Shown here in pieces: positions 2,779 through 20,071 of a stretch of DNA of 33,678 nucleotides; the stretch's first letter is position 1; each line of letters begins with the position of its first letter. The notes beneath the pieces were generated by a model. It saw only the letters and a program-made list of their open reading frames with translations. It was not told the origin of the DNA and did no database searches. The stretch is taken from the IMG/VR virus record IMGVR_UViG_3300005074_000010; one strand, written 5' to 3'. Made by a program: the position numbers and the translations under genes. The stretch comes from a virus.

Positions 2779-3153
2779 ATGAAACGTAATCCGTTTTGGA
2801 AGTATTTAGGGCCTGAAGATAGAATGCAAAATTCAGTAATGAGCTTTATAAGAGCGCATTATCCTAAGGCGTTAGTAACACACGCTACAAATGAGGGTAA
2901 GAGAACGCCATTCGAAAGGTATAAGTTAAAATATCTAGGCGCTACAGCTGGAATACCAGATGTACTAGTATTTACACCTAACGCTAAATACAATGGTTTA
3001 GCTATAGAACTGAAGTATAAGTATAACAAACCAACGAAAGCACAAGAAGATTGGCTAAAAGAGCTTAAAAAGTGCGGTTGGTACGCAATAGTTAGTAACG
3101 ATATAGATAAAACAATAGATGTCATTAGAAAATATTTTAAAGATGAATTATAA
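2779..3153 (+). CDS. VRR-NUC domain nuclease
   Basis: GIPDVLVF...LAIELKYKYNKPTKAQEDWLKELKKCGW matches the VRR-NUC pattern (PD..ExK..Q..W). Confidence 0.8.
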   Translation: MKRNPFWKYLGPEDRMQNSVMSFIRAHYPKALVTHATNEGKRTPFERYKLKYLGATAGIPDVLVFTPNAKYNGLAIELKYKYNKPTKAQEDWLKELKKCGWYAIVSNDIDKTIDVIRKYFKDEL

Positions 3154-3391
3154 GAGTATATACTTTGATGAGGGCACACAGAAAATCAGATTTACCTCTG
3201 ATTGTACAGAGAATGTGCCTTACACTATGAAGTATGTAGGCAAAATGAACAGAGTAGAATTTGACGCTTTTATTGATTTTCTCTGGGAGGTATATGAAGA
3301 TAATCTAATACCTATGAGCGAATTAGTAAAGCATTATAAAGATTATAGAGAGTTTATAGATAAGAAAAAAGAACTCTTTAGAAGAAAATAA
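3119..3391 (+). CDS. Hypothetical protein (the start may be the ATG at 3143)
   Basis: ORF track only; no recognisable motif. Confidence 0.5.
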   Translation: MSLENILKMNYKSIYFDEGTQKIRFTSDCTENVPYTMKYVGKMNRVEFDAFIDFLWEVYEDNLIPMSELVKHYKDYREFIDKKKELFRRK

Positions 3392-4247: not shown

Positions 4248-4617
4248 TAAACAAGTTAAGCAGAGTATTGACTTTGAGGGAATAGAGAACGGAAATATGC
4301 ACCCTACAGATATAGACGCTGTATTTGAGTTTGATAATGAAGCGTTAATACTAATGGAAGTAAAGAAACGCGGTAATAAATTACCTGTAGGTCAAAGGTT
4401 AGTATTAGAGAGAATAGCGGACTCTTGGCACACAGGTAAATCAATAGTGTTGATTATAAATCACACCTTTAGGAATGATGATAAAGATATTCCTCTAGTA
4501 AAGTGTTATGTTAGAGGATTCTATTATAAAAAAATGTGGTATGAGTGTAATGAGCCACTAAAGAAAACACTCAACAAACTTGGTAAGAAATGGAAAATTA
4601 ATAAACTACAACTATGA
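4216..4617 (+). CDS. Hypothetical protein with a possible PD-(D/E)XK-like motif
   Basis: HPTDIDAVFEF...LILMEVKK fits D...ExK spacing. Weak call. Confidence 0.4.
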   Translation: MNTLMGLIRNSKQVKQSIDFEGIENGNMHPTDIDAVFEFDNEALILMEVKKRGNKLPVGQRLVLERIADSWHTGKSIVLIINHTFRNDDKDIPLVKCYVRGFYYKKMWYECNEPLKKTLNKLGKKWKINKLQL

Positions 4618-4712
4618 AAAACGATAAAAAATACAGAGAAGCTGTAATATTTACAGCTATCAGTTACGCTGGAGTTATCTTAGTTCTAATGTACTTATTG
4701 TATGTTGGATAA
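4614..4712 (+). CDS. Possible 32-aa membrane micro-protein
   Basis: ATGA overlap with the upstream stop. Sequence MKNDKKYREAVIFTAISYAGVILVLMYLLYVG has one hydrophobic helix. It is below the ORF-track cutoff. Confidence 0.3.
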   Translation: MKNDKKYREAVIFTAISYAGVILVLMYLLYVG

Positions 4713-6381
4713 GTTTCTTCAGTTAGGTATCAAGGTACGGAATGTATCAGGTAACCAGAAAACACATTGCCCTAAGTGTTCACACACTAGGAAAAACAAG
4801 AGAGATAAGAGCCTATCAGTAAATGTACAGGAGGGTATGTTTAATTGTCATCACTGCGGTTATAGTGGTAATGTAAATATTACTAAGCGAGATAATTATA
4901 CTGAGATTACTAAAGTAAATATTAACCTTAATGAGCGCGTAATAGGCTGGTTTAAGGATAGAGGAATAAGTACTACGACGCTAGAGTATTGGAAGATAGG
5001 CGAATCTATAGAGTATATGCCTCAGGTAGACGGTAAAAGGCGCTGTATTAACTTTAACTACTTTAGGGACAATACTCTAGTAAACGTAAAATATAGGACC
5101 TCAGATAAGCATTTCAAAATGGTTACAGGTGCAGAACTTATATTTTACGGCCTTAATAATCTCAATCTAGATACTGAAACTTGTTATATAGTAGAGGGAG
5201 AGATAGACGCTCTTAGCTTATATGAAAGCGGTATTTATAGCGTTGTAAGTGTACCTAATGGTGCGAGTAAAGGCAATCAAAATCTTACTTATCTAGACAA
5301 CTGTTATGAATATTTTAAACATAAGAAAGAGATAGTATTATGTACAGATAACGATGAAGCTGGTATTAAATTACGTAATGAATTGGCTAGGAGGCTCGGA
5401 TATTACAGATGTAAATATGTCGATTTTGGAGAGTTTAAGGACGCAAACGAATGTCTGTTAGGCAAAGGGTCTGAATATCTGCGAAGTGTGCTTAAAACGG
5501 CTAAAAACTACCCTCTTGTCGGTGTCTTGTCCCTTGACGATGTATGGCAATCGGTGCTAACATATTCTGAGTCAGGTATAGAAAACTACTCTATTGGATT
5601 AGGAGAGAGCGACAACTTTTTCAATCTAGCATTTGGAGAATGGTCTGTATTAAGCGGTATTCCCAATAGTGGTAAATCTGATATTATGGACCAGATATTA
5701 GTAAACATAGCAAAGCTACATAAGTTTAAGAGCGCTATATTTAGCCCTGAATCATTCCCTTATGAGGGCCACATAAAGAGAATTGCTAATAAAATCAACG
5801 GCAAAAACTGTACAGTAGAGGACTTGAATAATACTAAAGATTTTATAAAGGAATATTTCAGCTGGATTAGAATAGATTTAAAAAACCTTACACTAAAAGG
5901 TATACTAGATAGCTTCAGAGAATTAGTACTACAAAGAGGCGTAAAGGTCTTTGTAATAGACCCTTATAATATGCTAGACCACACAGCTCAAAAGGACTTT
6001 AGCTATATAGGTAAGCAACTGAGCTTAATTACTCAGTTTGTACAGCAAACTAACTCGCATTTATTCCTGATAGCACACCCTAAGAAGATAGAAAGCGAGG
6101 ACGGAGTATTTAAGAAGCCTAATCTATACAGTATATCAGGGTCTGCGGACTTTTTTAACAAGGCGTATAATGGGATAATAGTATATAGATGTATAGGCAA
6201 TAAAACAGAGTACAAATCAGATTTAGTAAAGGTATATATAGAGAAAGTCAAACGTAAGGAGAACGGCCAACTAGGACAATTTGATTTAGCACCTGATTTT
6301 TATAATGGAGGCGTATATAAACCTGTAGGTAAGAAAGAGAAAAAATTTAAGGTAATAAGAGATAATAACGTACCTTTCTAG
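4702..6381 (+). CDS. Bifunctional DNA primase-helicase (T7 gp4-like)
   Basis: Zn finger CPKCSH...CHHCGYSG, TOPRIM motifs VEGEIDALSL/CTDNDEAG, and a Walker A motif SGIPNSGKSD with a DnaB-like C-terminus. Confidence 0.85.
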   Translation: MLDKFLQLGIKVRNVSGNQKTHCPKCSHTRKNKRDKSLSVNVQEGMFNCHHCGYSGNVNITKRDNYTEITKVNINLNERVIGWFKDRGISTTTLEYWKIGESIEYMPQVDGKRRCINFNYFRDNTLVNVKYRTSDKHFKMVTGAELIFYGLNNLNLDTETCYIVEGEIDALSLYESGIYSVVSVPNGASKGNQNLTYLDNCYEYFKHKKEIVLCTDNDEAGIKLRNELARRLGYYRCKYVDFGEFKDANECLLGKGSEYLRSVLKTAKNYPLVGVLSLDDVWQSVLTYSESGIENYSIGLGESDNFFNLAFGEWSVLSGIPNSGKSDIMDQILVNIAKLHKFKSAIFSPESFPYEGHIKRIANKINGKNCTVEDLNNTKDFIKEYFSWIRIDLKNLTLKGILDSFRELVLQRGVKVFVIDPYNMLDHTAQKDFSYIGKQLSLITQFVQQTNSHLFLIAHPKKIESEDGVFKKPNLYSISGSADFFNKAYNGIIVYRCIGNKTEYKSDLVKVYIEKVKRKENGQLGQFDLAPDFYNGGVYKPVGKKEKKFKVIRDNNVPF

Positions 6382-6814: not shown

Positions 6815-7399
6815 ATGAATTCACAATTAGTAAAGATTAGTAAGGTTAAGATGAACAAATCTAACCCTAGATTTATTAGAGATAATAAGTTTAACAGGTT
6901 AGTAGCGAGCATTAAGGAATTCCCGGAAATGTTAAAATTAAGGCCAATAGTAGTAAATCAGGATATGATTGTACTAGGCGGTAATATGAGGCTAAAGGCC
7001 TGTAAAGAAGCTGGGCTAAAGGAGGTCTATATTGTAGTAGCTGAAGAACTTACAGAAGAACAACAGAGAGAGTTTATTATTAAAGATAATAATAGCTTCG
7101 GTGAATGGGATTGGGATATTATTGCTAATGAGTGGAATGAAGTCAAATTAGAGGAATGGGGTCTTGATGTTTGGAAAGGAGAGCCTGAGAGCGATATGAG
7201 CTTACTAGATGATTTTGATGATTCTATAGTGGATGATATGCAAATGGGAGTAAAGAGAGGTATACAGATACCCTTTAATCTAGAGCATTATGAAGAGGCC
7301 TTTGAGCTTATCAAGTTCTTTAGAGATAGAGGAGATTATGTAGGTATGCTAATAATACAACACTTAAAACAAGTAAGAGCAGAATATGAAAAGAATTGA
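6815..7399 (+). CDS. ParB-like nuclease-domain protein
   Basis: NPRFIRD...LRPIVV...VLGGNMRLKACKEAGLKEVYIVV is a ParB N-terminal domain pattern. Confidence 0.75.
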   Translation: MNSQLVKISKVKMNKSNPRFIRDNKFNRLVASIKEFPEMLKLRPIVVNQDMIVLGGNMRLKACKEAGLKEVYIVVAEELTEEQQREFIIKDNNSFGEWDWDIIANEWNEVKLEEWGLDVWKGEPESDMSLLDDFDDSIVDDMQMGVKRGIQIPFNLEHYEEAFELIKFFRDRGDYVGMLIIQHLKQVRAEYEKN

Positions 7400-8165
7400 A
7401 TTAGTAAAACAAGAGCATAGCGTTACTATTGGAGATGATTGTGGAGATATAGAGCCAAACGTAACAGAAGATAGCCTTTTTATCGAAAATGGAGAGGTAA
7501 TAGGCTTCTACATAGCAGACCTAGCGAAGTACTCGGAAAAGGCCTCAAAATTAGCGCATTTGGCCAATAATGAATTGCGCTCTAAGCGCGTGCCTAAATC
7601 GGTTATGAAGCGTTCATCTGGTTTTGATAATCCTGAAAATGATGTATCTCAATACAGTACAATACTAGGGAGCTGTTTACCTAAGCCACACTTAGGACGT
7701 ACATATGCTACAAGAAGCTCTGTACATAATGTAGAGTCCGCTAAGAACTTTGTGAAAGCTATGTATCTCTTATGTAGAGAAGCTGAAGATATTATAAAGG
7801 AATTAGCACCGACTATATACGAAGAACAGAAAAAATTAATAGAGGAAACAGTACCTGAGAAATGGAGATTCGGTAGGTTGTTTACTAGTAGCATTAGTAA
7901 TTATAATATACCGGCAAATTTTCACATTGACCACGCGAACATTAAAGGCTGTTGTAATGTTATAATAGCAAAGAAGAACAACGCTACAGGAGGACATACA
8001 ACAGTACCTGATTATGGCGCTACAGTTAATAGCTGTGATAATAGTATGCTAGTATATCCAGCCTGGAGAAATATTCACGGAGTTACGCCTATAATTCCTA
8101 CTAGCAAAGACGGCTACAGAAATACACTAGTTTTTTATCCCCTAGCAGGCTTTACAGATTTATAG
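7386..8165 (+). CDS. Putative 2OG-Fe(II) oxygenase-fold protein
   Basis: An HxD (FHIDH) ... H (NIHGV, +51 aa) ... R (YRNTLVFY, +14 aa) triad with spacing typical of double-stranded beta-helix dioxygenases. Confidence 0.45.
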   Translation: MKRIELVKQEHSVTIGDDCGDIEPNVTEDSLFIENGEVIGFYIADLAKYSEKASKLAHLANNELRSKRVPKSVMKRSSGFDNPENDVSQYSTILGSCLPKPHLGRTYATRSSVHNVESAKNFVKAMYLLCREAEDIIKELAPTIYEEQKKLIEETVPEKWRFGRLFTSSISNYNIPANFHIDHANIKGCCNVIIAKKNNATGGHTTVPDYGATVNSCDNSMLVYPAWRNIHGVTPIIPTSKDGYRNTLVFYPLAGFTDL

Positions 8166-11681: not shown

Positions 11682-12519
11682 ATTTTACGATAGTTTTAGA
11701 GGCGCATATGCAAAGGCTAGAGGTATTACAGAGAAAAAAGTATTACCTAAAGTATACAATTACTACATAGACCAATTCTCTAAGCTTACTAAGAAATTTT
11801 TAGAAACAGGCTCTTATAATCCTATTGGATTTTTTCAACAAAAATTTATAACTGATTTGTACGCACATATATACATTAATACAGGTATGTATTTTGTACT
11901 CTGGTATGCTGATAATTTTAGAAAATACTCTACAAAACAAGTAGACCCTGAATTATATCTACAGGAATGGGAAGCTACTTTCAAATGGTACTCAAAACAA
12001 ATGGCTGAGGTATGGGGTCCTGAAATTACTAGAACTGCTACAAGGTCCGCTATAAGAACTTTTGAAGCTCTTATGAAAGACCCTGAGTTTGCTATGCTAG
12101 GAGTAGAGCAAAAGGCGCGCGTATTAGCGCGAAAACACGAGCATATAGGTATGGTTAATAGCAAAAGAATAATAGCTACAGAAACTACAAGAATATCAAA
12201 TTACGCCTTAGAACAATCGGCTACTACACTATTTCAACCTGATGATTTAAAAAAATATTGGATTGCCTCTATTGACGGAGCAGAAAGAAGCTCACATAAT
12301 GTAGCACACTATAAATATCAAAAGGGAATACCTATGAAAGAGAAATACAATGTAGGCGGTGAAATGCTAGATAGGCCAGGTGCTGGATTCTTACCAGAAA
12401 ATAATATCAACTGTAGATGTGTTAGTGTAGCTTTACCTGTACCGGACGCTGAGCCTAATGTGGAATTAGATAGCTTTGGTTTTGGTATGGCTGGGGGTAA
12501 GACCACTAATTGGTACTAG
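11674..12519 (+). CDS. Minor head protein, Mu F / SPP1 gp7 family
   Basis: Position after the portal gene, and the signature ...PENNINCRCVSV near the C-terminus. Confidence 0.8.
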   Translation: MSKFYDSFRGAYAKARGITEKKVLPKVYNYYIDQFSKLTKKFLETGSYNPIGFFQQKFITDLYAHIYINTGMYFVLWYADNFRKYSTKQVDPELYLQEWEATFKWYSKQMAEVWGPEITRTATRSAIRTFEALMKDPEFAMLGVEQKARVLARKHEHIGMVNSKRIIATETTRISNYALEQSATTLFQPDDLKKYWIASIDGAERSSHNVAHYKYQKGIPMKEKYNVGGEMLDRPGAGFLPENNINCRCVSVALPVPDAEPNVELDSFGFGMAGGKTTNWY

Positions 12520-12557
12520 TAGTAAAAATTTATTATCTTTACAAAAAATTTTTAGAT

Positions 12558-13232
12558 ATGCAATTAATATACAAACAAAGTCCTTTAGGAGAAGTACAGG
12601 ACATAGATAGCAAGAATGGTATAGTAAAGGGCTATGCTAGTTACTTTGATAATAAAGATTCTGATAATGATATTATTAAGAGGGGTGCTTACAAAAAGAC
12701 CATTGAGGAAAATGGTTATAGAGTAAAATATTACTATCAGCACAAACTAGACCAACCTTTAGGGAAAATGAGAGAGCTATATGAAGATGAGAAAGGGCTT
12801 ATGTTTGTAGCAGAAATACCTAAAACTACTCTAGGTAATGATGTACTAGAGTTAATGAGAAATGGTATAATTACTGAGAATTCAGTAGGAATTATGCCTA
12901 TACAGAAAGAAATTAAAGAGGGTTATAGAGAATTAACTGAAGTAAAGCTGTATGAAATATCAGCTGTTAGTTTGGCTAGTAACGACCAAGCTAAGATACT
13001 AGACGTTAAAGGAATGAAAAATTTTGATGATGTTTACAAAAGATATGATAATCTCTGTAAACTTATCAGAAAGGGCAATATCTCTGATGAAATGGGATAT
13101 GCTCTAGAAGCAGAAATCTTAAAGCTAAAAGGAGTTTTTACAAGTTTAGCTACTCAGCCAGCGGAAGCTACTGAGCCAGAAGTTAAAAATGATAGTTCAG
13201 CTTACAGATTGTTAATAGATAAATTAAAATAA
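12558..13232 (+). CDS. Prohead protease (HK97 / S78 family)
   Basis: GIVKGYASYFDNKDSDNDII..GAYKKTI, YYYQHK...PLGKM, EISAVSLASN. The ATG at 12558 is preferred over the alternative-start extension from 12510. Confidence 0.85.
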   Translation: MQLIYKQSPLGEVQDIDSKNGIVKGYASYFDNKDSDNDIIKRGAYKKTIEENGYRVKYYYQHKLDQPLGKMRELYEDEKGLMFVAEIPKTTLGNDVLELMRNGIITENSVGIMPIQKEIKEGYRELTEVKLYEISAVSLASNDQAKILDVKGMKNFDDVYKRYDNLCKLIRKGNISDEMGYALEAEILKLKGVFTSLATQPAEATEPEVKNDSSAYRLLIDKLK

Positions 13233-13258
13233 ATTTTAAACTTTTAAATCTTTTGGTT

Positions 13259-14446
13259 ATGAATGAAGAATTGAAGAAAGAGATGAATGAACTTGGCGAC
13301 ATTATAGACGCTAAGATTGAAAAAGCATCTCAACAAGCAATAGAGAGAGCAGACCAGAAAGCCGATGAAACTTTAAAGCGTGAAATTGATAATCTAATGA
13401 ACAAGTTTAACGAGCGTATGGACGCTGTAGAAGTTGCTCAGAAGAAAAATGCAGAAGCTAGTAGTGCTACTAAAAAGAGCTTCAGAACTGCTTTAGAGGA
13501 AAAATTAGCTGAAGGTGCATTAGAAGCCTTTACTAAAGGTAATGCAAATGCTACTACTCTAGAAATTAAAGCCGATATGACTACAGGCGCGGACTTTACA
13601 GGAGATGTAATACCTCCTACAAGAGTTCCAGGTTATAAGTACGACCCTACTAGAACTTTCCATATGAGAGATATTCTAGCTCAAGGTAGTACAGATAGTG
13701 ATGTTGTTAGATATGTAAAGGAGTCAGGTTATTCAGACGGTAATGCACCCAAAAATGAGGGTCAAACATTAGGTCAATCTGATTTTGATATGACAGCTGT
13801 ATCTGTTCCTGTAGAGAAAATCGGTACTTACTTTAGAATCTCTGAAGAAATGATGGATTCTACACCGCAATTATCTGCGTATTTAAGCGCAAGAGCACCA
13901 GAAAAATTATTAGCTGTAGAAGATAGCCAGATTGTATCTGGTAACGGTACAGCTCCAAATCTTAGCGGATTATTAACTTCTGCTACAGGTTTCACAGGAG
14001 CTGGATTTGCTAGTTCTATTTCAAACGCTAATCAGTTTGATGTATTAGCTGTTGCTCTTAATCAATTAGCTGTAGCTAATTACTCTGCAGATTATATTTT
14101 ACTAAATCCTGTAGATTGGCATAAATTAAGCTTACAAAAAGCTACTACTAAAGAATATTTAGTGAGTGATTGGCAAGCTGGTATGGTGCCTAGAATTATG
14201 GGCGTTCCTGTTATCCCTACTACTGCAATCAATAGTGATAAATATATCGTTGGTAATTTTGCTCAAGGAGCTCAATTATGGATTAAAGATAACGTATCAT
14301 TAGGATTCTTTAGAGAGGACGGTACTAACGTAAGAGACGGATTTGTAACAGTAAGATGTCAAGAGAGAGTTACTCTTGCTACTTACTTACCAAATGCGTT
14401 TGTTCACGGAGATTTCTCAGCGGACATTACGACTATCGGAGCATAA
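13259..14446 (+). CDS. Major capsid protein (HK97 fold) with an N-terminal coiled-coil delta/scaffold region
   Basis: Follows the protease. Charged coiled-coil N-terminus, then a capsid-like body (...PNLSGLL...LLNPVDW...). Confidence 0.85.
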   Translation: MNEELKKEMNELGDIIDAKIEKASQQAIERADQKADETLKREIDNLMNKFNERMDAVEVAQKKNAEASSATKKSFRTALEEKLAEGALEAFTKGNANATTLEIKADMTTGADFTGDVIPPTRVPGYKYDPTRTFHMRDILAQGSTDSDVVRYVKESGYSDGNAPKNEGQTLGQSDFDMTAVSVPVEKIGTYFRISEEMMDSTPQLSAYLSARAPEKLLAVEDSQIVSGNGTAPNLSGLLTSATGFTGAGFASSISNANQFDVLAVALNQLAVANYSADYILLNPVDWHKLSLQKATTKEYLVSDWQAGMVPRIMGVPVIPTTAINSDKYIVGNFAQGAQLWIKDNVSLGFFREDGTNVRDGFVTVRCQERVTLATYLPNAFVHGDFSADITTIGA

Positions 14447-14471
14447 TAGTAAGTCAATACTATAAAAATTA

Positions 14472-14499
14472 AGAGGTCAATTATGGCCTCTTTTTTTTT
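14472..14499 (+). terminator. Rho-independent terminator after the capsid gene
   Basis: Stem agaggtc/ggcctct (7 bp, one G.U), loop aattat, then T9. Confidence 0.75.
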
Positions 14500-14531
14500 G
14501 CTTTTTTTTGAAATTTTGACAAAATCGCATA

Positions 14532-14571
14532 TACGATTTAAGGCCATTTTTCGGCGTTTTGCGGGACTTTC
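14532..14571 (+). promoter_or_regulatory. Iteron/operator-like motif cluster R2
   Basis: tacgatttaag ... ggcgttttgcgggactttc, about 80% identical to 147-186. A nearby palindrome tttgc-ca-gcaaa lies at 14608-14619 and ttttgcg at 14682-14688. Confidence 0.55.
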
Positions 14572-14706
14572 CCACCTCGCTGATATATGACATTCAAAAA
14601 TTTTTGTTTTGCCAGCAAACGAAATTTTCCAGAGAAGAAAAAATCACGAAATAAAAAAAATTAAAAAAAATTTTAAATTTATTTTGCGAAATCCAAAAAA
14701 AGTTAA

Positions 14707-14714
14707 GACATTTG
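14707..14714 (+). promoter_or_regulatory. Imperfect -7-like box GACATTTG (TTTGTAT core) upstream of the island genes
   Basis: One mismatch to TAnnTTTG; 31 nt before the ATG at 14746. Confidence 0.3.
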
Positions 14715-14745
14715 TATCAACATTAACAACGCAAACAACAACACT

Positions 14746-14913
14746 ATGACAACAGTAAGCAACACTAAGGAAATCCGCTCAATCAATATTGAAAAAGTGC
14801 TAACCTCTTACAAGGTTACCTGTATGAAAGGTAATCAAGTAATAGTAAAGCGCTTCGACTCTGAAGAGTTCGCTAATCTTTTATCATCAACGTTCAACGC
14901 GTTAATCAACTAA
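14746..14913 (+). CDS. Island small ORF (55 aa)
   Basis: Hand-translated (MTTVSNTKEIRSINIEKV...). Preceded by the AACAACACTATG leader. Confidence 0.45.
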   Translation: MTTVSNTKEIRSINIEKVLTSYKVTCMKGNQVIVKRFDSEEFANLLSSTFNALIN

Positions 14914-14944
14914 TATTAATAATAACACAATAAAAACAACAATT

Positions 14945-15091
14945 ATGAACACAACACTAAACACTTTCGTAACAGCTCAAGCTCAAACTTTTTTCTGTTT
15001 AACTGATAAGCTCGATAGAGATTATGCTAGAGGCTTCATTACAGAAGCAGAATACAAGAACTCTCTAAGAGAACTGAGAAGAGCTGTATAA
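14945..15091 (+). CDS. Island small ORF (48 aa)
   Basis: Hand-translated (MNTTLNTFVTAQAQTFFCLTDKLDRDYARGFITEAEYKNSLRELRRAV). Confidence 0.45.
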   Translation: MNTTLNTFVTAQAQTFFCLTDKLDRDYARGFITEAEYKNSLRELRRAV

Positions 15092-15160
15092 AGTCGTTAG
15101 GGCGACTCTAAATAGGTTACTAAGCCCTAAGCGTTTGCCTCCTAGTAAGTCGGGAGGCAA
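15092..15160 (+). ncRNA. Bipartite hairpin element, copy A
   Basis: P1 is cgttagggc (15095-15103) / gccctaaGcg (15124-15133). A single T follows. P2 is ttgcctcc (15135-15142) / ggaggcaa (15153-15160). Confidence 0.6.
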
Positions 15161-15200
15161 GGAAACAATAACAGGAGGAAACTCCACAAAACACAAAAAA

Positions 15201-15728
15201 ATGTTTATCAAATTAACAGAATTCGAATGGTTAAAAGTTAGTCAAGCTATGTCTTGCTACAGAGCAACACTAAAGAAAGAGCACAACGCTCTTTGGGATT
15301 TAAGTAACAAGGAGGTCAAAGATATTTGCGCTTTAACACACAAGTCCTTAGACGGTAAAATTAATCAAACGCTATTAGTAGAAGCTAATATGCACAAGCA
15401 AACTAGAGAAATATTTGCTGAGTACAGAGAGAACTTTGAAGGCAAATTTGTAGTAACACAAGCTCAAGCTCTATTTATGCTAGAGTGCCTTTATAACTAC
15501 TTGTCGCACAACAGGTTAGAGCTAAAGAAGCATACAGAAAGTACAAACGGATATATAGCACATTCTTACAGTTCAACAATAGAAGATGTAAGGAACCTAA
15601 TAGGAAAGCTACATAACTCAATAATGTACCAAACTATGCACAGTACTATTACTACTGCTAGTTACATTGAAGAATCTCTACCAGGTTTAGGAGAGCATAC
15701 AGAGTATACTCAAAGAATGAACGCTTAA
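15201..15728 (+). CDS. Island hypothetical protein (175 aa)
   Basis: The ATG at 15201 is preferred. The ORF-track TTG start at 15135 lies inside hairpin P2 of element A. Confidence 0.6.
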   Translation: MFIKLTEFEWLKVSQAMSCYRATLKKEHNALWDLSNKEVKDICALTHKSLDGKINQTLLVEANMHKQTREIFAEYRENFEGKFVVTQAQALFMLECLYNYLSHNRLELKKHTESTNGYIAHSYSSTIEDVRNLIGKLHNSIMYQTMHSTITTASYIEESLPGLGEHTEYTQRMNA

Positions 15729-15743
15729 TCACTAATACTAATC

Positions 15744-15763
15744 AGGGCGTGTAAAAGCGCCCT
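15744..15763 (+). other. GC-rich hairpin agggcg-N8-cgccct directly after the stop codon
   Basis: 6-bp GC stem with no U-tract. Followed by the conserved leader TTAATAACAACACTATG. Confidence 0.45.
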
Positions 15764-15777
15764 TTAATAACAACACT

Positions 15778-15900
15778 ATGAACACACAACAATTAATAGA
15801 AAATTTCGAACTTAATCAGGCGGTAATCTACGGAACAGATTATACGCAAGTAATTAACACTATAAAACCTAGTAAAAATGAAACATTATCAGTATACTAA
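15778..15900 (+). CDS. Island small ORF (40 aa)
   Basis: Hand-translated (MNTQQLIENFELNQAVIYG...). Overlaps the next ORF by 23 nt. Confidence 0.35.
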   Translation: MNTQQLIENFELNQAVIYGTDYTQVINTIKPSKNETLSVY

Positions 15901-16075
15901 AGAGCGTATAACAGGAATGGCTAAAGTAGCCACTATTACAGACCTAAAAACAATAGTAAGTAATCTAAAGAAAAAAATGATTATACCTGTATTATACAAA
16001 GGTTACGCGGAAGATAAGCTAATTTTAGACATATGTTCTGCTGAGCTGGAGAGTCGTTTGAGCGACTTAAAATAG
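15878..16075 (+). CDS. Island hypothetical protein (65 aa)
   Basis: ORF track only. Confidence 0.5.
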   Translation: MKHYQYTKERITGMAKVATITDLKTIVSNLKKKMIIPVLYKGYAEDKLILDICSAELESRLSDLK

Positions 16076-16121
16076 CGTTTAAGCTCAAAGCGTGCGTATA
16101 GCTAGGTCAAGTGCTATACGC
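16052..16121 (+). ncRNA. Bipartite hairpin element, copy B
   Basis: P1 is cgtttgagc (16055-16063) / gctcaaaGcg (16083-16092). A single T follows. P2 is gcgtatagc (16094-16102) / gctatacgc (16113-16121). Confidence 0.6.
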
Positions 16122-16162
16122 GGTACGAACTTGCCTTAAAACGGCTTAAAATACTTAAAATT

Positions 16163-16357
16163 ATGACATACGATGAAACACTAGAAGCTTACAAAATCTA
16201 CGAATTAGTAGAGAGTAAGTACAAACTTAGTAGCACTATGAAGAGAAGATTAAAACAATTTTCTATTCAAGAGCTAAGAGAATTAAGGGTCTTTATAGAA
16301 AGAGGTCCTGATGCAAGCTACAATAACGCTATGCAGTGGCTTTGTAGCCTAGATTAG
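16163..16357 (+). CDS. Island hypothetical protein (64 aa)
   Basis: ORF track only. Confidence 0.5.
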   Translation: MTYDETLEAYKIYELVESKYKLSSTMKRRLKQFSIQELRELRVFIERGPDASYNNAMQWLCSLD

Positions 16358-16366
16358 CACAATAAC

Positions 16367-16418
16367 TAGTAAGTAATAGTTATATGAACTTAAAGTGAAT
16401 ATAACTATTACTATACTA
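16367..16418 (+). ncRNA. Long hairpin with conserved loop GAACTTAAAGTGA (family 2, copy 1)
   Basis: 19-bp stem (16367-16385 / 16399-16418) with one bulged A (16413). The outer segment is tagta/tacta. Confidence 0.55.
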
Positions 16419-16433
16419 CTTAATAACAACACT

Positions 16434-16583
16434 ATGAAAGACGAATTACTACAAGAATTACAGAAGCTAGAGAAAGACCTAGTAGCACTATCATTATTTT
16501 CTACTGATGATAATGAGAGAAATGCTATGATGAGAAACTATGCTACTGTACGAAAAACAATCAAATATATTACTAATAACTAA
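16434..16583 (+). CDS. Island small ORF (49 aa, coiled-coil-like)
   Basis: The ATG at 16434 is preceded by TTAATAACAACACTATG. The ORF-track GTG start at 16395 lies in the hairpin loop. Confidence 0.5.
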   Translation: MKDELLQELQKLEKDLVALSLFSTDDNERNAMMRNYATVRKTIKYITNN

Positions 16584-16594
16584 ATTTTAAAATT

Positions 16595-17104
16595 ATGAGT
16601 GAAAACTTAACACCCCCAGAAAACGTTATTTCTAGAGACGATTTACAAGACAAAGTTCTAGAAGCATTATCTAATGACGGTTGGCCTTATTCCTCTGAAC
16701 TAACAGAAGAAGAACTAAGAGAAGCTGTAATAAATGAAGATAGTATTACTTACTATGAGCCTAATAGCTTAAGCTGGTCTGATATGGTTGAAAAAGCAGA
16801 CCTTAAAGGGTGGGTAGAGGACCTAGCCTGTGGTACTAGTGTGTATATACTAACAGATGAGCATATGCGAGGCCTAAGGCAAGGATATAACCTACAGCAA
16901 GACGTATATGTTGATTTGTACGGAGCTGAGGACCGTATCTACGAAGCTCTTACTAGCGGTTATAGTATTGCTATTGACTTTGAAGATGAGCTAGATATGC
17001 GCGAAGTATGGGAGCGTGCCTATGATGATATTAGGGACGCTAAAGAGCAAGAATACTACAGCGACTTAGAAGATGAGTATGATGAAGTAGTAGATGAATA
17101 CTAG
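16595..17104 (+). CDS. Highly acidic 169-aa protein (candidate DNA mimic / anti-restriction protein)
   Basis: Very high D+E content, ending ...EQEYYSDLEDEYDEVVDEY. No enzymatic motif. Confidence 0.6.
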   Translation: MSENLTPPENVISRDDLQDKVLEALSNDGWPYSSELTEEELREAVINEDSITYYEPNSLSWSDMVEKADLKGWVEDLACGTSVYILTDEHMRGLRQGYNLQQDVYVDLYGAEDRIYEALTSGYSIAIDFEDELDMREVWERAYDDIRDAKEQEYYSDLEDEYDEVVDEY

Positions 17105-17146
17105 TAGAATACTTATGAGCTTAAAGCGAAATAAGTATTACTACTA
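17102..17146 (+). ncRNA. Long hairpin with conserved loop GAGCTTAAAGCGAA (family 2, copy 2)
   Basis: 15-bp stem (17102-17116 / 17131-17146) with one bulged A (17140). Same tagta/tacta base as copy 1, but different inner stem sequence. Confidence 0.55.
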
Positions 17147-17154
17147 CAAGAGGA

Positions 17155-17226
17155 CAGGGCCTCTATAAATAGTACTTAAGCCCTGAGCGTTCCCCTAGTT
17201 TTGTGTTGTTGTTGTTGTACTAGGGG
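17155..17226 (+). ncRNA. Bipartite hairpin element, copy C
   Basis: P1 is cagggc (17155-17160) / gccctg (17180-17185) with loop ctctataaatagtacttaa. P2 is cccctagt (17192-17199) / actagggg (17219-17226) with a (GTT)4-containing loop. Confidence 0.5.
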
Positions 17227-17251
17227 AGGTGTAACTAAAAAATTTTTAATA

Positions 17252-17398
17252 ATGGAACACACTATTGATTTTTTGTATCAGCGCATTAGTAGCTTAGAAG
17301 CTCTAATTAAGCTGAAAGACAAACACATTGAGCGCCTAGAGGCACAGCTCGATAAGACACGAACTATTAACCCTAAAAAAGAAAACTATGGAAGATAA
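17252..17398 (+). CDS. Island small ORF (48 aa, coiled-coil-like)
   Basis: The ATG at 17252 is preferred. The ORF-track start at 17201 (MCCCCC...) translates the GTT repeat inside hairpin P2. Confidence 0.5.
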   Translation: MEHTIDFLYQRISSLEALIKLKDKHIERLEAQLDKTRTINPKKENYGR

Positions 17399-17810
17399 AA
17401 TCACATTTTGGAACACACTAGAAAAGGACTTACCTACTGAGATAAAGCTTAAAGTAATAAAGCACCTTTACAGCCTTGAAATAGGAGAGCCTACAGATTC
17501 TCACTATCATTCTAACAAATATGAAGTAAGATTGTATACTGAGTACACTAATGATAGCTACGAATACTTCACTATCAATTATAACGGTATTACAGAGCAG
17601 TTTACATATATGCACGATGATTACTGTAATTACATAGCGCACCTGATTCAGGAAGAAAAATACACTAGTATTTACTGTGATGATGATGAGATATTAGATA
17701 CAATAGAGTATGTCTTAGAGAATATTTACAATGACCTTACCTGGAATCACATAAATATTATCGAGGACGCATTAAAGGACCTTAATATAGATATGAAATG
17801 GAAAGTTTAG
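17388..17810 (+). CDS. Island hypothetical protein (140 aa, acidic, Tyr-rich)
   Basis: ORF track only. Confidence 0.55.
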   Translation: MEDKITFWNTLEKDLPTEIKLKVIKHLYSLEIGEPTDSHYHSNKYEVRLYTEYTNDSYEYFTINYNGITEQFTYMHDDYCNYIAHLIQEEKYTSIYCDDDEILDTIEYVLENIYNDLTWNHINIIEDALKDLNIDMKWKV

Positions 17811-18220
17811 AATTATACACACTAGAGGCGCTTCACAGATTTATAGAGAAAGAGCTAGATGATAGTATCTCTATACCGAAGCTTAAGCCAATATACAGAG
17901 AAATTAGAGGCAAATATTTTGCTATGTCCCTAGAGGATTTAGATATGCATATTGAGCTAGATAATCACGAGTACAGAGTAATAGGTAGCTGGTGTATTGA
18001 TAGAGTGCACAAAGAAGCTACTAAGGATATAGTACAAGAATGTTACTTTACTGAAACCAATCTTGATAAACTCTGGTGGATTAAGATTGATTGGACGGCT
18101 ACAAGTAACACACTAATAGAGACGGACGGCTACGCCAATATGTTTGCTACATATGACCACAACGAATATGAGTTCGATATGGATAATAGAAGCACACTAT
18201 ATTTTTTCAGGACTAATTAA
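17798..18220 (+). CDS. Island hypothetical protein (140 aa) with an ArdA-like C-terminal pattern
   Basis: ...KDIVQECYFTETNLDKLWWIKIDWTATSNTLIETDGY...YFFR loosely resembles the ArdA C-terminus (..YIDYqaygRDL....g..F). Judged from memory only. Confidence 0.5.
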   Translation: MESLELYTLEALHRFIEKELDDSISIPKLKPIYREIRGKYFAMSLEDLDMHIELDNHEYRVIGSWCIDRVHKEATKDIVQECYFTETNLDKLWWIKIDWTATSNTLIETDGYANMFATYDHNEYEFDMDNRSTLYFFRTN

Positions 18221-18231
18221 TACATAACGAT

Positions 18232-18393
18232 ATGAAAGACAAAAAAGAATACAAGAAAAAACTAGAACAAGAAGTCAAAGAGCTTAAAGACCGAAATGCT
18301 AGAATTACGCTACAGATTATGAAGATGAGGTCTGAAAGCAATTACAATAAAACACTAATACGCGGATATGAAGAAGAGCTCGAGAACTTATAA
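18232..18393 (+). CDS. Island small ORF (53 aa, Lys/Glu-rich coiled coil)
   Basis: Hand-translated (MKDKKEYKKKLEQEVKELKDRNARITLQIMKMRSE...). Confidence 0.4.
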   Translation: MKDKKEYKKKLEQEVKELKDRNARITLQIMKMRSESNYNKTLIRGYEEELENL

Positions 18394-18562
18394 AGCTGTA
18401 AAGAACGCACTAAATCGCGTAAGGCGTAATATGCGTGTGCGTAAAGAACGTAAAGAAAAATTAGAGAAAGTAATTTTTTATTGTATATTTACAGCAATAC
18501 TATTCGTTATTACTCTATTGTTTCTTAAGCTAGAGTATTGGATAGAAATAATCTTACACTGA
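18368..18562 (+). CDS. Small membrane protein (basic N-terminus plus one TM helix)
   Basis: RVRRNMRVRKERKEKLEK followed by VIFYCIFTAILFVITLLFL. Confidence 0.5.
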   Translation: MKKSSRTYKAVKNALNRVRRNMRVRKERKEKLEKVIFYCIFTAILFVITLLFLKLEYWIEIILH

Positions 18563-18594
18563 TTGTTTTCTTTGTAAATTTGGTTTTTTAGTTC

Positions 18595-18627
18595 AAGACC
18601 CTTACTGTTGTGAGGGTCTTTTTTTTG
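18595..18627 (+). terminator. Rho-independent terminator closing the island operon
   Basis: Stem aagaccct / agggtctt (8 bp), 10-nt loop, then a T-run. Confidence 0.75.
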
Positions 18628-18634
18628 TTTTTAT

Positions 18635-18659
18635 ACGTTTTTTGGCGTTTTGCGGTAAG
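18635..18659 (+). promoter_or_regulatory. Iteron/operator-like motif cluster R3 (ACGTTTT-N3-GCGTTTTGCGGTAAG)
   Basis: Same architecture as R1 and R2. Followed by the TTTTGTATATTGG box (18661-18673) and the palindrome agcaa-aca-ttgct (18695-18707), which spans the nuclease start codon. Confidence 0.5.
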
Positions 18660-18702
18660 ATTTTGTATATTGGTAGGTGATACACCTTAAAATCAGCAAA
18701 CA

Positions 18703-19122
18703 TTGCTTAAAACGTCCAAAAATGAGCTTAAAACGTATATTGACGACAAAAATTTGGTAGGCTGTTGCGCTGAATATATTTTCGCTACGCGATGTATGCA
18801 ACAGGGGTATTTAGTTAGTATGCCTTTACTACAGACGTCTAAGTATGATTGTATACTAGATGTTAATAAAAAATTACTAAAAGTACAGATAAAAAGTATA
18901 GGTATAAACAGAAGAAGAGATAAGGGAAAAAATAGTATACAACTAGTACTTGCTAGAACTCAGGACTTCTACTGTAGGGAAGATGTAGATTATTTTGCTA
19001 TATATCATAGAGAGCTTGACGGCTTCTTTATCATAAAAAATAATCAACAAAAGAGCATTAGAATTAACATTAACGGAAAGTATAAAGAAAATTTTAATAA
19101 CTTTGCTCTATTCTTACACTAA
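18703..19122 (+). CDS. Stand-alone PD-(D/E)XK endonuclease (I-Ssp6803I / PDDEXK_5-like), TTG start
   Basis: CAEYIFATRCMQQGYLVSMPLL..SKYDCILD...LLKVQIKS fits the E...D...(Q/E)xK core of this family. No in-frame ATG occurs before the motif. Confidence 0.55.
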   Translation: MLKTSKNELKTYIDDKNLVGCCAEYIFATRCMQQGYLVSMPLLQTSKYDCILDVNKKLLKVQIKSIGINRRRDKGKNSIQLVLARTQDFYCREDVDYFAIYHRELDGFFIIKNNQQKSIRININGKYKENFNNFALFLH

Positions 19123-19165
19123 GTTAAGTTTGTTTTCTTACATAAGTTATAGTTTGTTATTAAAA

Positions 19166-19194
19166 GGGCTACTAATTAAGTAGCTCTTTTTTTT
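19166..19194 (+). terminator. Rho-independent terminator after the nuclease gene
   Basis: Stem gggctact / agtagctc (8 bp, one G.U), loop aatta, then T8. Confidence 0.7.
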
Positions 19195-19206
19195 GTATCT
19201 TTACTA
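19191..19206 (+). promoter_or_regulatory. Promoter-like box TTTTGTATCTTTACTA (class 2)
   Basis: Near-identical to 23733-23748 (TTTTGTACCTTTACTA). Both lie 14-15 nt before an ATG. Confidence 0.4.
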
Positions 19207-19220
19207 AAAATATTTTACTA

Positions 19221-19730
19221 ATGAGGCAAATAAAGATAATAGCTACTTCAGGCTCAGAGATTGTTAGTACTAGTACAGCTAAGGCTTACTTAAGGGTAGA
19301 TTTCTCAGATGATGATACACTAATAGAGCGTATGATTACTCAGGCGCGCATATGGTGCGAGAATTATATATCTAGAGATATAGTAGCCAAAACAAGGGTA
19401 TACTATTTGCCTAGTACTAACGGTACATTTGACTTACCGTTTGCTCCTGTAGATAGTATTACGCACGTAAAGATTGACTCTGTTGTTGCTACATATAATG
19501 TACTAGGCCTTAATAATGAAACTATTGAGCTCAACGCTGGAGAATCTGAAAAGGTAGAAGTACGTTATGTAACATTAGGAATGTCTGATGATTTACTAAA
19601 GAATGCAATATTACAGCTAGTAGCTTCTTACTATGAGAATAGAGGGGACTTTATGGTTGGTAGTACAGTAAACGAAGTGCCTACTAATGTTAAATCTATA
19701 TTAGCCTCTTTTAAGTCAATGTATATATAA
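19221..19730 (+). CDS. Head-tail connector protein (gp6-like)
   Basis: AKAYLRVDFSDDDTLIERMITQARIWCENYISRDI is typical of the gp6 / Phage_connect_1 family. Confidence 0.75.
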   Translation: MRQIKIIATSGSEIVSTSTAKAYLRVDFSDDDTLIERMITQARIWCENYISRDIVAKTRVYYLPSTNGTFDLPFAPVDSITHVKIDSVVATYNVLGLNNETIELNAGESEKVEVRYVTLGMSDDLLKNAILQLVASYYENRGDFMVGSTVNEVPTNVKSILASFKSMYI

Positions 19731-20071
19731 TGGCAAAACAATTTCAACCTGGTAAACTGAACAAAAGAATACAATTTCTTGATTTCGTTACTGTAGATGA
19801 CGGCTTTGGAGGCCTTACAGAAAGTAGCGTATCAGTAATTGCTACTGTTTGGGCGCACGTGAAAGAGGTTAGGAGTAAAGTAGATGACCTTACTAAAGAC
19901 GGAGAAATAGGTAATAGAGTAGAAACTGAGTTCTACATTAGAAAAAAAGCAGTAAATATACAAGACGATTTTATTATTAGATTTAATAGTAAAGATTATA
20001 GAATTAACGCCTTTTATGATAGTGAATTAGATTACTACATAAAAATAATTGCTACTAGACAAGATGACTAA
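19730..20071 (+). CDS. Head-tail adaptor / head-closure protein (SPP1 gp16-like)
   Basis: GKLNKRIQF...DDGFGG...VWAHVKE pattern; 113 aa. Confidence 0.75.
   Translation: MAKQFQPGKLNKRIQFLDFVTVDDGFGGLTESSVSVIATVWAHVKEVRSKVDDLTKDGEIGNRVETEFYIRKKAVNIQDDFIIRFNSKDYRINAFYDSELDYYIKIIATRQDD

Follow-up and report, generated by a model that had tools for sequence, protein, structure and literature searches.

Three intergenic elements in a small-gene island of an uncultivated tailed phage are very probably pistol-class self-cleaving ribozymes

Here we describe three intergenic elements (A, B and C) in the genome of an uncultivated tailed phage, contained in a window (the whole stretch of DNA analysed) of 33,678 nucleotides. 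The elements lie in an island of about 3.9 kb of small genes on the sense strand and are co-oriented with these genes. Comparison of the island ORFs with PHROGs and Pfam yielded no credible function, and a scan of 10 further ORFs revealed neither an RNA-repair gene nor a ligase gene. A terminator scan identified the following sites on either side of the elements:

14471..14500, + strand, terminator-like hairpin with T-run, after the gene of the major head protein (PHROG match)
18595..18629, + strand, terminator-like hairpin with T-run

The island transcription unit is probably bounded upstream by the first hairpin and downstream by the second.

The first-pass annotation had described the elements as bipartite hairpins with compensatory base changes. 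The stems, loops and coordinates that it gave are all present in the DNA, including the 20-, 19- and 19-nt 'loops', the AAATAG motif, the extra G, the AGCGT tail and the three downstream ATGs. Its suggestion of a cis-acting RNA for processing was right in kind, as all three elements match the pistol ribozyme family RF02679. In an Rfam search of the whole window, copies C, A and B scored 62.0, 44.1 and 39.7 bits, respectively, all above the curated gathering threshold of 34.5 bits (E-values of 3.7e-09 for copy C and of 4.7e-05 and 4.7e-04 for the other two copies), and the match of copy C is full-length (model positions 1-68). No other Rfam family reaches its gathering score anywhere in the 33.7 kb. 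At E-values up to 5, the other matches were spurious microRNA or sRNA matches far below their thresholds, and hammerhead, twister, hatchet and twister-sister gave no match in the window even at that level. An independent covariance model (R1), built solely from three pistols on unrelated viral contigs, recovered these three sites and no others in the window (E-values of 2e-9, 3e-8 and 1e-7; 46.9 bits for copy A and 43.9 bits for copy B). Given the E-values of both models, the resemblance to pistol is far beyond chance. The three elements are very probably pistol-class self-cleaving ribozymes on the sense strand; they are new copies of a known class, and the family itself is not new. The pistol class was first described in 2015, and three more copies are unsurprising because the class, its structure and its chemistry are already well studied. 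Pistols are often found near phage genes (PMC4604425).

The 3' halves of the copies required separate treatment. The Rfam alignment left out the 3' end of copy A, and in copy B it skipped P3 and ended at 16097; R1 misaligned P3 of copy A and clipped the 3' strand of P2 in copy B. MAFFT failed on the 3' halves because the P3 loops vary. Owing to these limits of MAFFT and R1, P2 and P3 were parsed by script. A manual parse of copy B recovers a full canonical 3' end (GGU-ACG). The resulting features are as follows:

15092..15167, + strand, pistol ribozyme A (RF02679 44.1 bits, R1 46.9 bits; script and manual parse)
15092-15096/15103-15107, + strand, P1 of A (AGUCG/CGACU)
15097-15102 with 15125-15130, + strand, pseudoknot of A (6 bp, UUAGGG/CCCUAA)
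15108-15114, + strand, A-rich linker of A
15116-15118 (GUU) with 15164-15166 (AAC), + strand, P2 of A
15121-15124, + strand, active-site UAAG of A (A31, A32, G33)
15131-15133, + strand, active-site GCG of A (G40, C41, G42)
15134-15143/15152-15161, + strand, P3 of A (10 bp, 8-nt loop)
15162..15163, + strand, predicted scissile step G^A of A (alignment to the family)
16052..16128, + strand, pistol ribozyme B (RF02679 39.7 bits, R1 43.9 bits; manual parse)
16052-16056/16063-16067, + strand, P1 of B (AGUCG/CGACU)
16057-16062 with 16084-16089, + strand, pseudoknot of B (6 bp, UUUGAG/CUCAAA)
16076-16078 (CGU) with 16125-16127 (ACG), + strand, P2 of B
16090-16092, + strand, active-site GCG of B
16093-16102/16113-16122, + strand, P3 of B (10 bp, 10-nt loop)
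16123..16124, + strand, predicted scissile step G^U of B (alignment to the family)
17149..17234, + strand, pistol ribozyme C (RF02679 62.0 bits, E-value 3.7e-09)
17149-17153/17160-17164, + strand, P1 of C (AGAGG/CCUCU)
17155-17159 with 17181-17185, + strand, pseudoknot of C (5 bp and an A.A, (A)CAGGG/CCCUG(A))
17173-17175 (UAC) with 17231-17233 (GUA), + strand, P2 of C
17187-17189, + strand, active-site GCG of C
17190-17199/17219-17228, + strand, P3 of C (10 bp, 19-nt (UUG)n-like loop)
17229..17230, + strand, predicted scissile step G^U of C (Rfam alignment and parse)

The elements thus start at 15092, 16052 and 17149 and reach farther 3' than first annotated, to 15167, 16128 and 17234. The ORF preceding each ribozyme terminates at its 5' end or within it, and in copy B the stop codon of the upstream ORF (TAG, 16073-16075) falls within the conserved AAAUAG linker. 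The next start codon is about 18-41 nt downstream. Most other pistols sampled have the same context, with co-orientation, an upstream ORF ending at the 5' end and a nearby start codon, so the setting is typical of the family.

All features of the pistol fold were found in each copy. The RNA would fold into P1, a hairpin of 5 bp whose loop pairs over 6 bp with the strand entering P3 to create the pseudoknot, and into a short P2 and a variable P3 hairpin of 10 bp. The two hairpins of the first-pass drawing map onto this fold: the first corresponds to the six-pair pseudoknot, a defined pistol feature (PMC4604425, PMC6154101), together with G33-C41, and the second to P3. The G that it showed as bulged falls, in the alignment, at the position of the catalytic G40 (15131 in A, 16090 in B and 17187 in C). 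The 5-bp hairpin that it had drawn as an alternative in A and B is P1, which is present in C as well (agagg/cctct, 17149-17164). The two-hairpin architecture omitted two parts, the short helix P2 and the cleavage junction of two nucleotides. G40, purine 32, G42 and G33-C41 have documented roles in the pistol active site (PMC6154101, PMC6795133), and all are intact in A, B and C, with UAAG and GCG at the aligned positions. In every copy P3 follows G42 immediately and has U.G as its closing pair, and P2 consists of three Watson-Crick pairs and a basal G.A pair, which is shorter than in the crystallised constructs. The sequences of P2 and P3 are wholly different among the three copies; pairing is kept nonetheless. 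The junction between P3 and P2 is two nucleotides long throughout, G-U in B and C and G-A in A.

Covariation was counted on 24 distinct sequences, over the well-aligned columns of P1, the pseudoknot and G33-C41 only. In these columns 96.5% of cells are paired, compared with 20-47% when the partners are slid. Both sides have changed in seven of the 12 pairs (four of five in P1 and three of six in the pseudoknot), G33-C41 is invariant in all 24 sequences, and none of 500 shuffles reached the covariation score. The paired substitutions noted in the first hairpin of the original drawing are real, and they are located in the pseudoknot. G.U pairs occur in the P1 and pseudoknot helices, which favours RNA of this strand over DNA.

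These data bear on an antitermination or switch function. Phage HK022 put RNA consists of two independent stem-loops with one unpaired base between them, lies just downstream of early promoters and acts in cis through RNA polymerase, suppressing downstream terminators. The elements have a superficial likeness to it, as a pseudoknot-free fold draws two hairpins about one nucleotide apart in some 70 nt of phage transcript, and the 5-bp hairpin overlaps the first stem of that drawing, from which a two-state switch between this hairpin and the long-range helix had been proposed. However, the nested drawing arises only from pseudoknot-free folding. P1 and the pseudoknot use different nucleotides and both covary, as in the solved pistol fold (PMC6154101); the two helices thus coexist in one pseudoknotted structure. 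The elements match the consensus of another family, pistol, throughout, they do not appear to be placed between an early promoter and terminators, and no terminator-like site was found between them and 18595. A put-like antitermination RNA or a two-state switch is accordingly barely credible.

We compared the locus with its relatives. No close relative was found by megablast of positions 12000-20000 against 50,697 GenBank phage records, where similarity is at the protein level only. All three copies are kept in three related phage contigs (L009, L010 and L017), and these orthologues also exceed the RF02679 gathering threshold; the orthologue of copy A in L017 reaches 58.1 bits with its 3' end included. 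A search with the 175-aa protein encoded downstream of copy A returned the same three relatives and no further loci. Relative to L017, three of 299 sites differ in the ribozyme-bearing spacers, compared with 331 of 3,285 in the island ORFs (Fisher p = 6e-10), that is, a divergence of about 1% in the spacers and of about 10% in the neighbouring genes. Across the four phages the core is invariant whereas the loops and the neighbouring genes change. Family membership, the features of the fold and this selective conservation are established at the level of sequence comparison.

The same comparison addresses whether the elements are coding. Open frames cross P3 of copies A and C, and the N-terminal extensions of the downstream ORFs, starting at TTG codons (15135 and 17201), might be translated. 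In L017, however, the P3 loops carry indels of 8 nt (A) and 4 nt (C) that shift the frames of these extensions, and the ATG-start ORFs remain intact. No codon-position pattern is seen in the spacers, whose divergence is one tenth of that of the genes. Translation of the extensions is thus extremely improbable.

Gene content of the island varies among close relatives. Four insertion or deletion differences were found: an extra 106-aa gene at 14913/14945, the absence of ORF 16163-16357 from L010, the absence of a 38-nt hairpin (17106-17143) from L017, and a 56-nt difference inside ORF 14746-14913. Repeated intergenic elements in such a variable region of small ORFs are a trait shared with PeSL elements of T4-type phages, in which an early promoter is joined to a stem-loop, and could be read as DNA-level recombination repeats or cassette boundaries that drive small-gene shuffling. 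That proposal, made in the first-pass annotation, does not survive comparison of the indels with the elements. A pistol copy is the end point of none of the four differences; three end away from the elements and the fourth is the 56-nt difference within a gene. The three copies form a direct-repeat family within 2.1 kb, but only about 45 nt of core is common to them. The G.U pairs and the strand-specific covariation in the helices also speak against a DNA-level element, and the elements are conserved in the manner of an RNA tertiary fold. In a scan for sigma-70-type promoters, which does not extend to those of Bacteroidota type, no site overlapped 15092-15200, 16052-16162 or 17149-17251 and none lay immediately upstream of any copy. 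We consider a PeSL-like role very unlikely.

Copy A departs most visibly from the pistol consensus, having a G-A step at the junction and one extra nucleotide opposite the scissile step. In the pistol family, the identity of the scissile dinucleotide is variable and its length strictly conserved (PMC4604425). A G-A step with a non-U base opposite is also present at L011:817, L003:4257, L015:12692 and L013:2164. The variant, which recurs in other pistols that score 52-60 bits and is always accompanied by a matching change of the opposite base, looks like a maintained subtype. It is nevertheless conceivable that the elements, or at least copy A, are pistol-derived RNAs that no longer cleave and are kept for another structural role, such as stable protection of a 3' or 5' end, binding of a protein, or control over translation of the next gene. 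The non-consensus step of copy A, its 3' end outside the Rfam alignment, the short P2 of all three copies and the start codon at a constant short distance downstream are consistent with such a role, and computationally predicted ribozymes sometimes do not cleave (PMC8782182). Set against this are the intact active-site nucleotides named in the literature, the recurrence of the G-A variant with its matching change in other pistols of 52-60 bits, and a core that is invariant across four phages despite changes in the loops and the adjacent genes. On balance, loss of cleavage appears improbable. We counted as points against the pistol assignment the three-pair P2 with its G.A, the G-A step and extra nucleotide of copy A, the Rfam omissions (3' end of A and P3 of B) and the A.A mismatch that ends the pseudoknot of copy C.

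Pistol ribozymes cleave by attack of the 2'-oxygen of the G between P3 and P2 on the phosphate that follows it; the general base is G40, the acid is a hydrated Mg2+, and the products are an upstream RNA with a 2',3'-cyclic phosphate and a downstream RNA with a 5'-OH. The cleavage site of the family is documented (PMC4604425, PMC6795133). The predicted self-cleavage of A, B and C would occur at 15162|15163, 16123|16124 and 17229|17230 and would divide the island transcript into four pieces. Upstream pieces would each end in a folded ribozyme, and downstream pieces would each begin with a 5'-OH, 22-39 nt before a start codon, leaving the following leaders:

15163..15200, + strand, leader after cut A, before ATG 15201 (38 nt; one substitution relative to L017)
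16124..16162, + strand, leader after cut B, before ATG 16163 (39 nt)
17230..17251, + strand, leader after cut C, before ATG 17252 (22 nt)

The most likely role of the ribozymes would be to cut the polycistronic mRNA of the island into pieces. Such processing may serve to make the stability or translation of one gene group independent of the next within a single mRNA; pistols of bacteria and phages have no generally established biological role (PMC6765202), so this purpose is put forward as a hypothesis only. A comparable proposal exists for hammerhead and twister ribozymes in bacterial and phage operons, which may split polycistronic mRNAs into parts of differing stability or translation (PMC6765202). 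These are likewise small self-cleaving RNAs near phage genes, with different folds and consensus sequences.

The tandem pistols might be more than passive scissors, through translation-coupled cleavage, RtcB-type re-ligation or both, and we regard this as a long shot. Conserved stop codons occur in the 31-32 nt with which the ribozyme begins (UAA at 18-20, UAG at 22-24 and UAA at 29-31, in canonical spacing); they close all three frames in copy C and only two in A and B. As the stops lie inside the ribozyme, a terminating ribosome would unfold P1 and the pseudoknot. If this were true, cleavage, and through it what happens to the mRNA of the following gene, would be tied to translation of the preceding gene. 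The predicted internal pieces (15163-16123, 961 nt; 16124-17229, 1,106 nt) would each bear a 5'-OH and a 2',3'-cyclic phosphate. Since an RtcB-type ligase joins such ends, circular or re-ligated phage mRNAs are conceivable. With three copies in one transcription unit, a short fixed distance to the ATG, and near-invariance in four phages while genes diverge, come and go, the locus provides a compact, conserved test case for the role of pistols.

The elements share the P1, pseudoknot, P2, P3 and two-nucleotide-junction architecture of known pistols (RF02679; env25, PDB 5K7C; Lysinibacillus sphaericus; Alistipes putredinis), including the core AAAUA linker, the UAAG, the pseudoknot followed by GCGU, the phage gene neighbourhood and the intergenic position on the sense strand. 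They differ from usual pistols in minor points: P2 is cut to 3 bp and a G.A, copy A has a G-A cut with an extra base opposite, three copies lie in 2.1 kb, and the ORF upstream of copy B ends inside the ribozyme. Pistols are commonest in Firmicutes, whereas the portal protein here, 34% identical to those of Cellulophaga phages, weakly suggests Bacteroidota as the likely host group. A strict core-pattern scan of 596 Gb of genome contigs gave 18 matches, about the number expected by chance on our own estimate and therefore uninformative about hosts; none of the 18 fits the covariance model, and the two inspected have no P1 and pseudoknot. Among viral pattern matches, L001 and L012 gave no covariance-model match. 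BLASTP of the island ORFs against the ORFs of all other pistol-bearing loci produced no match. A similar triple pistol array is present in a second, unrelated phage lineage. Different ribozymes can also cluster: on contig L016 a pistol lies 1.9 kb from a type-P5 twister.

An Rfam scan of the whole window at curated thresholds returned exactly three matches, all to the pistol ribozyme family (RF02679; gathering score 34.5 bits) and all on the + strand:

15092-15161, + strand, pistol ribozyme, copy A, 44.1 bits
16052-16097, + strand, pistol ribozyme, copy B, 39.7 bits
17149-17234, + strand, pistol ribozyme, copy C, 62.0 bits, E 3.7e-09

Relaxing the scan of the window to E up to 5 brought in nothing but spurious microRNA and sRNA matches that fell far short of their thresholds. 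An independent covariance model, trained on three pistol sequences taken from unrelated viral contigs (L006a, L006b and L002), found these three sites in the window and no others, at 46.9 (A), 43.9 (B) and 51.8 (C) bits. A repeat search grouped the copies as direct-repeat families D1 and D3. The first-pass annotation had described them as a family of bipartite hairpins; its stems, loops and coordinates were all found on reading 14400-17900, as were its start codons at 15201, 16163 and 17252, but all three elements run a few nucleotides beyond the last hairpin, which it missed. The copies add a new, tidily arranged and conserved set to a known class, and are not a new kind of element.

Structural elements of copies A, B and C
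P1, 5 bp: A, AGUCG/CGACU; B, AGUCG/CGACU; C, AGAGG/CCUCU
Pseudoknot: A, UUAGGG with CCCUAA; B, UUUGAG with CUCAAA; C, CAGGG with CCCUG, plus A.A
P2, 3 bp and a G.A pair at its base: A, GUU/AAC; B, CGU/ACG; C, UAC/GUA
P3, 10 bp, sequences unrelated between copies: loop of 8 nt in A, 10 nt in B, 19 nt in C
Junction dinucleotide: A, G-A; B, G-U; C, G-U

The pseudoknot joins six P1 loop nucleotides to six nucleotides 3' of G33. P1 is followed by an A-rich linker of the (C/U/A)UAAAUA type, UAAG carries A31, A32 and G33, GCG carries G40, C41 and G42, and a U.G pair opens P3; the functional assignments of purine 32, the G33-C41 pair, G40 and G42, and also the six-pair pseudoknot, follow published work (PMC6154101, PMC6795133). 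The pairings drawn earlier have other identities: the proposed alternative hairpin is pistol P1 (and is present in copy C at 17149-17164, not in A and B only), the original P1 is the pseudoknot plus adjoining pairs, and the original P2 is pistol P3. The "bulged G" falls where the family has its general base, G40, and the "AGCGT tail" is A39-G40-C41-G42-U43. A pseudoknot-free folding program renders the pseudoknot as an ordinary long-range stem, which is the picture drawn in that annotation. The P3 loop of copy C (17200-17218) is a (TTG)n-like microsatellite, TTTGTGTTGTTGTTGTTGT, with a 4-nt insertion in L017, a close relative of the window phage.

Covariation was counted on the P1, pseudoknot and G33-C41 columns of an alignment of pistols from viral contigs, found by core pattern and confirmed with Rfam and the independent model (31 matches, 24 distinct). 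In these columns 96.5% of cells were paired, 7 of 12 pairs had changed on both sides, and the covariation score was reached by 0 of 500 shuffles; sliding the partners by 1-3 columns lowered pairing to 20-47%. P1 and the pseudoknot both covary and therefore coexist, so the suggested two-state switch between the 5-bp hairpin and the long-range helix lacks support. G.U pairs in the P1 and pseudoknot helices and at the P3 base indicate an RNA of this strand rather than a DNA-level palindrome.

All three ribozymes are retained in place in three close relatives (viral contigs L009, L010 and L017, with 97%, 96% and 88-92% identity to the window phage). Between the window and L017, 3 of 299 aligned sites differ in the ribozyme-bearing spacers, compared with 331 of 3285 in the island ORFs, mostly at third codon positions (Fisher's exact test, p = 6e-10). 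Within the ribozymes only P3 loops have changed, by indels of 8 nt (copy A) and 4 nt (copy C). Both indels put out of frame the TTG-start N-terminal extensions that had been read through the elements, so the extensions are no conserved coding sequence.

The window is a tailed-phage genome segment in which replication genes are followed by terminase, portal, protease and major head protein (13253-14446) genes, then by an island of small ORFs with no assigned function (~14700-18560), and then by connector, tail and tape-measure genes. Plausibly the island is one transcription unit of ~3.9 kb, because it is flanked by terminator-like hairpins with T-runs (14471-14500 and 18595-18629) and a terminator scan found no others between them on the + strand. 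Given their intact features and the purifying selection on them, we infer that copies A, B and C cleave. In the established pistol reaction, G40 acts as base in an internal phosphoester transfer that leaves 2',3'-cyclic phosphate and 5'-OH ends (PMC4604425, PMC6154101, PMC6795133). Self-cleavage would split the island transcript at 15162|15163, 16123|16124 and 17229|17230, giving internal pieces of 961 nt and 1106 nt and downstream pieces that begin 38, 39 and 22 nt ahead of an ATG (cuts A, B and C, respectively). It could make gene groups carried on the same mRNA independent of one another in stability or translation, a standard and explicitly unproven hypothesis for bacterial and phage ribozymes (PMC6765202).

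Of the three, copy A has the least certain predicted activity. Its 3' end was left unaligned by Rfam, its scissile step is G-A rather than G-U, and it has AC in place of the single U of canonical copies; in solved structures this U29 and the +1 U make a U.U pair (PMC6795133). In the L017 orthologue the P3 loop is shorter and the Rfam alignment extends through GGAAACA (58.1 bits). A +1 A with a non-U base opposite also occurs in four other pistols (L011:817, L003:4257, L015:12692 and L013:2164), the first three scoring 52-60 bits. Because the G-A type recurs, and because the two junction nucleotides vary in identity while junction length is strictly conserved (Harris et al., PMC4604425), copy A is read as a probable natural subtype, a decayed copy being less favoured.

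The elements had also been likened to PeSL elements, as cassette boundaries. Four differences among relatives were compared with the ribozyme positions: an extra 106-aa gene in relatives at window 14913-14945 (L009 ~4410-4731, minus strand), flanked by a repeated A-rich leader sequence; a first island ORF (14746-14913) that is 56 nt longer in relatives, the difference lying within the ORF; precise loss in L010 of the 64-aa ORF 16163-16357 (window 16168-16366), with ribozyme B, the leader and ATGAC kept; and loss in L017 of a 38-nt hairpin (17106-17143). None of the four ends at a ribozyme, and the PeSL-like reading therefore fails the criterion that the first-pass annotation had set for it. 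Island gene content varies among phages that are 88-97% identical.

Pistols are frequently near phage genes (PMC4604425). Another, unrelated phage lineage (L003, L011 and L015) likewise has arrays of three, and L006 has two copies 457 nt apart; no similarity was detected between proteins around these arrays and those of the window island. The ORF ahead of a sampled pistol usually stops no more than ~10 nt from P1, or else within ribozyme positions 1-31, and a start codon usually lies 18-41 nt past the 3' end; the ORF ahead of copy B has as its TAG stop the UAG in the conserved AAAUAG. The canonically spaced core holds stops in all three frames (UAA 18-20, UAG 22-24, UAA 29-31; for example, window 17166-17179), and the upstream frame closes at one of them in several sampled pistols (loci L003, L011 and L015, and copy B), or, with a linker longer by 1 nt, at 30-32. 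Ribosomes terminating there would sit on P1 and the pseudoknot. In L016, an unrelated viral contig, a pistol and a type-P5 twister ribozyme (1177-1249 and 3099-3163) share a strand and are separated by 1.9 kb; self-cleaving ribozymes of different classes are known to cluster, and this is one such case.

The island also holds two very stable AT-rich hairpins (16367-16418 and 17102-17146; folding z-scores -5.2 and -6.2) with a common apical motif, GA-ACUUAAAGU-GA versus GA-GCUUAAAGC-GA, that carries a compensatory A-U to G-C change and, among fetched loci, is found in the window phage lineage only. The hairpin at 16367-16418 forms a near-perfect palindrome of 41 bp, and the one at 17102-17146, just 2 nt upstream of ribozyme C, has a precise absence (38 nt) in L017. 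They may be terminators, processing sites or small insertions. An identical 19-nt leader, TTAATAACAACACTATGAA, comes after both a GC-rich hairpin (AGGGCG...CGCCCU) and hairpin H1 (15744-15763, 15764-15782, 16420-16438, 14734-14754), and related AACAACACTATGA leaders precede other island genes. Besides the ribozymes, the island thus has this hairpin-leader unit as another kind of intergenic module, in which the leader probably serves as a common translation-initiation region.

The 12-mer GGCGTTTTGCGG occurs exactly twice in the window (14553-14564 and 18644-18655; 0.01 expected by chance), within a longer similar stretch, TATACG...TTTT..GGCGTTTTGCGG. It starts ~65 nt (14553) and no more than 35 nt (18644) past the end of a terminator-like site, with the next gene block downstream, and may serve the island and the following endonuclease gene as a promoter or regulator site. 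That gene, a stand-alone PD-(D/E)XK endonuclease (18703-19122; Pfam PDDEXK_5, E 5e-13) between the island and the head-tail connector gene, is bracketed by terminator-like hairpins at 18595-18629 and 19162-19199. Elsewhere, a ParB N-terminal-domain protein (6815-7399) has as its downstream neighbour a Tet/JBP-type 2OG-Fe(II) dioxygenase (7386-8165), a pairing that suggests DNA base hypermodification by this phage.
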